Below, in pieces: positions 8,562 to 8,676 of a stretch of 9,238 nucleotides of DNA. The DNA is from a virus (Duplodnaviria; Heunggongvirae; Uroviricota; Caudoviricetes): IMG/VR virus record IMGVR_UViG_2703718854_000002. One strand, written 5' to 3'. Within the stretch, counting starts at the first letter, position 1; every line of letters starts with the position of its first letter. The position numbers and the translations under genes are program-made. Below the pieces are notes generated by a model. It was given only the letters and a program-made list of their open reading frames with translations. It did no database searches and had not been told where the DNA came from.

Positions 8562-8637
8562 TAGAAAAATCAGTCAATTCTGAGAAGGCAGAAGTTTAGC
8601 ACCAACAGACAACTTGATCGACTATCAGAATAAGATG

Positions 8638-8657
8638 TACTGTATATGCATACAGTA
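8638..8657. promoter_or_regulatory. LexA (SOS) box TACTGTATATGCATACAGTA
   Basis: CTGT-N8-ACAG with AT-rich spacer, a near-perfect match to the 20-bp LexA consensus taCTGTatatatataCAGta. Lies 20 bp upstream of the ATG at 8677 and about 77 bp upstream of the divergent gtrA start. Confidence 0.75.
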
Positions 8658-8676
8658 TGCATTTTGAGGTGACAAC

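Follow-up and report, generated by a model that had tools for sequence, protein, structure and literature searches.

A 115-bp junction between a putative minimal gtr promoter and a predicted LexA-operated promoter in an Escherichia prophage remnant

Background

Is an O-antigen glucosylation (gtr) operon carried by an Escherichia prophage remnant still governed by the Dam/OxyR phase-variation switch described for phage P22, and does a LexA box lying beside its first gene bring it under the influence of the SOS response? Both questions arise from the short region that separates gtrA from a divergent gene in the stretch of DNA analysed here (9,238 nucleotides, hereafter the window). A first-pass annotation of the window had raised the possibility that O-antigen modification in this element is not Dam/OxyR phase-variable and that, with a LexA box in the place of the switch, it may respond to SOS status. 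Published work on related operons provides the standard for comparison. In P22, the transcription start has been mapped 25 bp upstream of the gtrA ATG, which puts GATC-4 at -33, GATC-3 at -46, GATC-2 at -97 and GATC-1 at -110, and phase variation requires 115 bp upstream of this start, being abolished once OxyR(A) is removed (Broadbent et al. 2010, PMC2909390). A P22 construct covering -45 to +34 (strain sMV175), which holds the RNA polymerase site and GATC-4 only, is uniformly Lac+ with 349 Miller units, and its activity is somewhat lower in a dam mutant (PMC2909390). In S. Choleraesuis the gtrSCB67_I operon, whose promoter is reduced to a -10 and a -35 with GATC-4, does not phase-vary; among 59 Salmonella gtr operons 16 are without the signature, and for Shigella gtr no evidence of phase variation exists (PMC3688519).

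Results

The element and its genomic setting

The whole window is Escherichia chromosome carrying a prophage remnant at tRNA-Ser(CGA). Positions 1-1724 (mtfA, tRNA-Ser and integrase) match E. coli, with a match of at least 95% identity in nearly all of 5,426 genomes, and the tRNA-Ser gene was the sole match in an Rfam search of the window. The element is a deletion remnant between 1097 and 4763, with its integrase cut to 226 aa and its tailspike reduced to the last 224 aa. The genes relevant to this study are as follows:

1097-1777, truncated integrase, 226 aa
4089-4763, tailspike C-terminal fragment, 224 aa (full form 812 aa in other genomes, L045-L047)
4809-5795, minus strand, O-antigen acyltransferase-like gene, 328 aa (Pfam Acyl_transf_3, E 8.8e-35), the downstream neighbour of the gtr cluster
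5859-7295, minus strand, gtrC, serotype-specific glucosyltransferase, 478-aa ORF (Pfam Glucos_trans_II, E 6.9e-25)
7270-8202, minus strand, gtrB, bactoprenol glucosyltransferase, 310 aa (Pfam Glycos_transf_2, E 7.9e-30)
8199-8561, minus strand, gtrA, 120 aa (Pfam GtrA_DPMS_TM, E 1.8e-14)
8677-8916, plus strand, 79-aa gene, first of the SOS-box operon (PHROG 3893, E 2.4e-33)
8918-9238, plus strand, UmuD'-like gene, 106 aa (PHROG 3469 'UmuD-like', E 5e-41, full length)

The acyltransferase gene and gtrABC place two O-antigen-modifying functions side by side, and an ORF of the YkgJ type (CxxCxxCC) is present at 3076-3609. The exact 79-aa protein is encoded in many NCBI assemblies, with the same neighbours as here followed by yodB and zinT. 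IS elements break up the locus in some strains; E. coli CUWW10 (L001 7115-8802), in which an IS1 insertion splits gtrB and the junction of gtrA and LexA box is undamaged, is an example of gtr operon decay with the regulatory gap kept.

The gap itself is 115 bp long (8562-8676), running from the start of the minus-strand gtrA at 8561 to the start of the 79-aa ORF at 8677. It holds, as had been reported for it, a single GATC at 8616-8619 (the next ones on either side being at 8149 and 8700) and a LexA box at 8638-8657, 77 bp from the gtrA start. One GATC per 115 bp is in itself not unusual (the whole window has 25, against 34 expected), and the lone site is notable by position rather than by count, because it is homologous to GATC-4 of P22.

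A putative P22-type core promoter without the phase-variation switch

When the window was compared with P22, ST104, SfII and Enterobacter phage vB_Ecl_MII_001, the alignment was free of gaps from the gtrA ATG through an invariant TTGATCGA, after which similarity stops; homology to P22 ends at about -38. The distance from ATG to GATC is 55 bp, identical to that in P22 (gtrA start at 2755, GATCs at 2810, 2823, 2874 and 2886), and gtrA is about 75% identical at the DNA level to its P22, ST104 and SfII counterparts. The following elements could be placed on the basis of this alignment:

8562-8586, minus strand, putative gtr 5'UTR with transcription start at about 8586 (by P22 homology, where the start lies 25 bp upstream of the ATG)
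8593-8598, minus strand, putative gtr -10 TAAACT (P22 TACACT), at the same offset from the ATG as in P22
8616-8621, minus strand, putative gtr -35 TCGATC, holding the lone GATC (invariant TTGATCGA column; GATC-4 of P22 at -33)
8620-8637, unstranded, 18-bp spacer, occupying the place of the P22 GATC-3/OxyR(C) segment and without an OxyR half-site

No recognised binding site was seen in the 18-bp spacer. A simple sigma-70 consensus scan detected neither this promoter nor the rightward one described below, both being weak by consensus, so their placement rests on homology and comparative spacing. The sole hits of that scan were two plus-strand matches, running into or lying inside the 79-aa ORF. 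An additional gtr promoter reading leftward from beyond the LexA box, of the phiKO2 gp22 kind, was sought as well, with no minus-strand consensus match in 8450-8800.

The elements of the P22 core promoter are thus recovered by alignment at identical spacing (GATC-4 within the -35, predicted start 25 bp upstream of gtrA), and those of the switch are absent. Four paired GATCs (-110/-97 and -46/-33) characterize the P22-type region, of which 8562-8676 has the equivalent of GATC-4 only. Scoring against the OxyR half-site ATAGnTnnnAnCTAT gave no 15-mer in 8562-8676 at 7/10 or better, and the best score for two half-sites in the gap was 11, against a shuffle mean of 10.8. By the same scoring the P22 half-sites, arranged in 32-bp steps, reach 8/10 (A), 10/10 (B) and 8/10 (C); no set of three half-sites at such steps, matching at 8-10 of 10 positions, is found here. 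The region conforms instead to the minimal, non-phase-variable type of gtr promoter represented by gtrSCB67_I and sMV175, in which a -10 and a -35 with GATC-4 are all that is kept and the upstream switch DNA is replaced; the SfII gtr region likewise has a single GATC.

We propose that gtrABC would be read leftward from a P22-type core promoter (start at about 8586, -10 TAAACT, -35 with the single GATC). Upstream of about -38 the P22 switch is missing, with none of GATC-1 to GATC-3, neither of OxyR sites A and B, and little of C left. Because the paired GATCs and the OxyR sites are missing, OxyR could not compete with Dam for methylation. The promoter would then be uniformly ON and not phase-variable, with Dam methylation of the lone GATC at most tuning its strength. 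From the sequence comparison we infer both constitutive gtr expression and a transcription start near 8586. The suggestion that this operon is not Dam/OxyR phase-variable has held up, in that only GATC-4 is left, no OxyR half-site is present and the published minimal promoters are ON; it is well supported, yet other gtr operons in this state are already on record.

The LexA box and a candidate divergent promoter

On the other side of the gap, three further elements were located:

8638-8657, unstranded, LexA box TACTGTATATGCATACAGTA, centred at -61.5 from the putative gtr start, with its left arm TACTGT as the candidate rightward -10
8614-8619, plus strand, candidate rightward -35 TTGATC, placed by its conserved distance to the LexA box and overlapping the gtr -35 on the opposite strand
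8666-8669, plus strand, Shine-Dalgarno GAGG of the 79-aa gene, read from the sequence

The box agrees with the palindromic consensus TACTGTATATATATACAGTA at 18 of 20 positions, with perfect arms and both mismatches in the central spacer, and a LexA-like site (CTGT-N8-ACAG) occurs nowhere else in the window and had 0 matches in 200 shuffles. Relative to the putative gtr start the box covers -52 to -71, outside the gtr core promoter, and 19 nt separate it from the ATG of the 79-aa gene; an operator that overlaps a predicted core promoter and start is therefore seen for the rightward operon and not for gtr. In P1 the LexA box of humD also lies 19 nt upstream of the ATG, and the ribosome-binding motif TTGAGGTGA is common to P1 humD and the 79-aa gene.

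A rightward promoter composed of -35 TTGATC, an 18-bp spacer and -10 TACTGT (3 of 6 positions of TATAAT) would drive the 79-aa gene and the UmuD'-like gene, and the LexA box would span its -10 and start region, with a predicted start around 8650. LexA normally represses by occluding the -35, the -10 or the start site. With LexA on the -10 and start, the operon would be off until the SOS response cleaves LexA. Both LexA binding and the rightward transcription start are predictions of this kind, and the box is best described as the predicted operator of the divergent 79-aa/UmuD'-like operon and not as a regulator of gtr, because it accompanies that operon also where the flank has no gtr.

The two genes of this operon are coupled (TGAtATG). 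For the 79-aa protein, searches of Pfam, NCBIfam and PDB returned no family and no significant PDB match; RefSeq and some phage records call this PHROG 3893 protein 'DNA polymerase V', a label that seems to have been carried over from the UmuD'-like gene next to it. An antisense ORF of 59 aa (8625-8804) was rejected, being on the strand opposite the conserved 79-aa gene and without independent evidence in its favor. The 106-aa protein starts with MGFPSPARDYIE, the N-terminus of UmuD' after cleavage (GFPSPA), and keeps the N-terminal arm GFPSPARDYIE; it aligns to residues 1-49 of the UmuD' structure 1umu and has GFAV where UmuD' has the catalytic GDSM. Against the NCBIfam HumD equivalog (cutoff 120 bits) it reached 26.9 bits, over residues 1-23, and it belongs to a separate short family (PHROG 3469), shorter than HumD (about 129 aa). 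In Pseudocitrobacter faecalis the same position is taken by a 144-aa HumD-like gene and an SOS-response-associated peptidase.

The junction among related loci

Relatives were collected in several ways. A megablast search of the phage collection with 8400-9238 had no match, and the relatives from that source came from distant blastn; a scan of genome contigs with the 79-aa protein gave two loci, both in Pseudocitrobacter. A degenerate DNA pattern for the gtr -10/-35 was tried on viral contigs and abandoned in favor of a GtrA protein scan, having returned 29 chance matches with no gtrA nearby. The viral-contig scans gave two junctions of the window type, 26 of a sister type (TTGATCGATACCGCCGATCNATAA followed by a LexA box) and 80 GtrA-encoding loci; the arrangement is also found on phage contigs of 30-50 kb.

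After removal of duplicate contigs, TTGATC followed by a LexA box was present in 62 loci, with a spacer of 18 bp in 59 of them and of 17 bp in the other 3, and with at least four unrelated spacer sequences. A gtr promoter lies to the left in 49 loci, and the 13 others have unrelated left flanks that diverge at TTGATC. The fixed length of the spacer, its unconserved sequence and the edge of the module at TTGATC together lead us to read TTGATC and TACTGT as a -35/-10 pair. In every module examined the downstream gene was UmuD'-like, 106-aa-like or of the 79-aa type. Homologues of the 79-aa gene without gtr, in Cronobacter phage phiES15, Escherichia phage vB_EcoS-733R5 and Erwinia phage Midgardsormr38, have a LexA box 11-20 nt upstream, and the box is also kept upstream of homologous genes in Pseudocitrobacter and E. 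coli. In E. coli PK5 and M171-1 the 79-aa/HumD module adjoins an acyltransferase gene instead of gtrA, and the LexA box is degenerate.

Seen from the gtr side, CTGT-N8-ACAG was found within 140 bp upstream of gtrA in 33 of the 76 sampled viral-contig loci that had upstream sequence, in a sample biased toward relatives of this GtrA; 26 of these 33 have one GATC, 7 have two and none has four. No description of the gtr/LexA-box arrangement was found in the literature searched, though it is common among the sampled loci.

Positions 8562-8637 are identical in E. coli CUWW10, E. coli Z142-3 and Pseudocitrobacter faecalis (76/76) and nearly so in P. cyperus (75/76). In the same relatives gtrA coding DNA is 72-89% identical, and the right-hand genes are about 79-96% identical in the E. 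coli relatives and about 43% over the UmuD'-like gene in Pseudocitrobacter, which has the longer 144-aa HumD form. Conservation so far above that of the neighboring coding DNA fits two overlapping promoters under constraint, as predicted here, and could also reflect a recent recombination tract or extra, unrecognised regulatory sites.

Two side observations concern segments of the same region. The P22 sequence at 2808-2831 (L003), TTGATCGATACAAGCGATCAATAA, which holds GATC-4, GATC-3 and OxyR(C), was compared with L020, L022, L024, L041 and others and is identical at about 21 of 24 positions to the -35 and spacer of a LexA/humD-like promoter, TTGATCGATACCGCCGATCAATAA, which is found also in phages without gtr. 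On this identity the gtr phase-variation switch and the SOS promoter have a segment in common, with either direction of descent. Two independent loci whose box sequences differ (L044 2640-2660 and 3950-3975, equivalent to window 8638-8657, and L038 11647-12990) each carry an ISL3-family IS of 1316 bp at the precise midpoint of the LexA box, with 8-bp target duplications ATATGCAT and ATGCATAT and IS copies identical at 1247 of 1316 positions. In both cases the operator that lies between gtr and the UmuD'-like operon is broken in two, and this ISL3 IS seems to prefer the palindromic core of the SOS box as its target.

Discussion

Taken together, the gap is probably an ordinary and common mosaic junction of enterobacterial prophages, in which a minimal gtr promoter meets the LexA-operated promoter of a UmuD'-like operon. 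The LexA box beside gtrA gives no ground for reading SOS control of gtr, as it would be the operator of a mobile UmuD'-like module. The corresponding prediction is that this Escherichia O-antigen glucosylation cluster would be expressed uniformly, which bears on serotype stability and on the masking of phage receptors.

Coupling of gtr expression to the SOS response is, in our judgement, unlikely, and several routes to it can be imagined. Polymerase at the derepressed rightward promoter might conceivably exclude polymerase from gtr, giving less gtr during SOS; divergent transcription might conceivably raise local negative supercoiling, giving more; or LexA, centred at -61.5, could touch or block the alpha C-terminal domain of the polymerase. 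The two -35 elements do overlap, with the GATC in common to TTGATC (plus strand, 8614-8619) and TCGATC (minus strand, 8621-8616), and all 49 loci adjacent to gtr have this geometry; however, the junction may be constant only by common descent. The frequency of the LexA box within 140 bp upstream of phage gtrA genes (33 of the 76 sampled) is also in favor of coupling, and single sites between two genes are familiar elsewhere: the P1 annotation puts one LexA site 'in the regulatory region of lxr and humD', that of phiKO2 lies between a divergent dinI-like gene and a umuD-like gene, and uvrA and ssb have a LexA box in common (PMC8072944). A constant spacing of 18 bp is likewise what one would expect if gtr depended on the distance from LexA box to gtr -35, but the 13 loci without gtr on the flank keep the same spacing, and the rightward promoter alone therefore explains it. 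Since the box, at -52 to -71, is outside the gtr core promoter, direct repression of gtr by LexA is unlikely, and no paper linking gtr to LexA or SOS was found in the literature searched. An SOS effect on gtr, if present, would conceivably be indirect, through competition between the -35 elements or through supercoiling, and nothing here supports one. The proposal of the first-pass annotation that the box stands in for the switch, so that SOS may influence gtr, is thus unsupported as it was put: the box serves the divergent operon and occurs also where gtr is absent.

A more elaborate idea, to which we give still less credence, is that the promoter pair with its shared GATC forms a conserved regulatory unit through which the cell's SOS and Dam state would influence O-antigen glucosylation. 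As long as LexA is bound, the rightward promoter would be silent and RNA polymerase would use the gtr -35; in a small subpopulation with SOS ON, polymerase would be diverted rightward and gtr output would change, so that O-antigen heterogeneity from cell to cell would arise by a route taking the place of Dam/OxyR phase variation. If overlapping -35 elements at a Dam site did couple the two promoters, modification of the surface antigen would be linked to DNA-damage status in many enterobacterial prophages.

Residual Dam/OxyR control, in which OxyR would act on a degenerate site around the remaining GATC and methylation would make gtr bistable, is very improbable. In its favor are the location of the GATC within the -35, the effect of Dam status on the activity of the minimal P22 promoter (PMC2909390) and the perfect conservation of 8620-8637 among relatives. 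Against it stand the lack of any half-site at 7/10 or better in the gap and a two-half-site score at shuffle level (11 and 10.8), the disappearance of P22 phase variation after removal of OxyR(A) (PMC2909390), and gtrSCB67_I, which has the same remnant and does not phase-vary (PMC3688519). We consider it equally far-fetched that the junction is a decayed part of a prophage remnant with one or both promoters non-functional, as might be thought from the integrase of 226 aa, the 224-aa C-terminal tailspike piece (812 aa elsewhere) and the IS elements that interrupt the locus in some strains, given that gtrA, gtrB, gtrC and both rightward genes are intact ORFs, that 8562-8637 are 75-76/76 identical across Escherichia and Pseudocitrobacter, that the LexA palindrome is intact, and that the arrangement is also carried by phage contigs of 30-50 kb.

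The preferred reading, a minimal gtr promoter joined to a LexA-operated promoter, can be set beside several known systems. Like gtrSCB67_I, sMV175 and SfII gtr, the gtr side combines a -10 and a 25-nt leader with a -35 that contains GATC-4 at -33, and has neither GATC-1 to GATC-3 nor OxyR sites A and B; unlike in those minimal promoters, the switch is here replaced by a promoter reading in the opposite direction, predicted to be LexA-operated and with a -35 that overlaps the gtr -35, and not by attP-proximal sequence. With the Dam/OxyR regions of P22 and gtrLT2_I it has in common a homologous gtrA, the leader, the -10 and the -35 with GATC-4, but only one of the four GATCs of that type, and none of its three OxyR half-sites, is found here. 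The rightward side resembles P1 lxr-humD (as annotated in GenBank, from which the P1 facts used here were taken), phiKO2 gp22-gp23 and N15 gp26, where a near-consensus LexA box precedes a UmuD'-like gene pre-processed at GFPSPA, and in P1 and phiKO2 a divergent gene likewise starts from the same intergenic region. It differs from these three in that the first gene encodes the 79-aa protein and the UmuD'-like protein is short (106 aa) and without the Ser motif, and from P1 and phiKO2 in having for its divergent partner an O-antigen modification operon that has a conserved promoter of its own, instead of a gene of SOS type (dinI, lxr). Finally, as between uvrA and ssb of E. coli and Salmonella, one LexA box lies between divergent genes, but there it is placed to affect both promoters, whereas here it falls at -52 to -71 of the gtr promoter.
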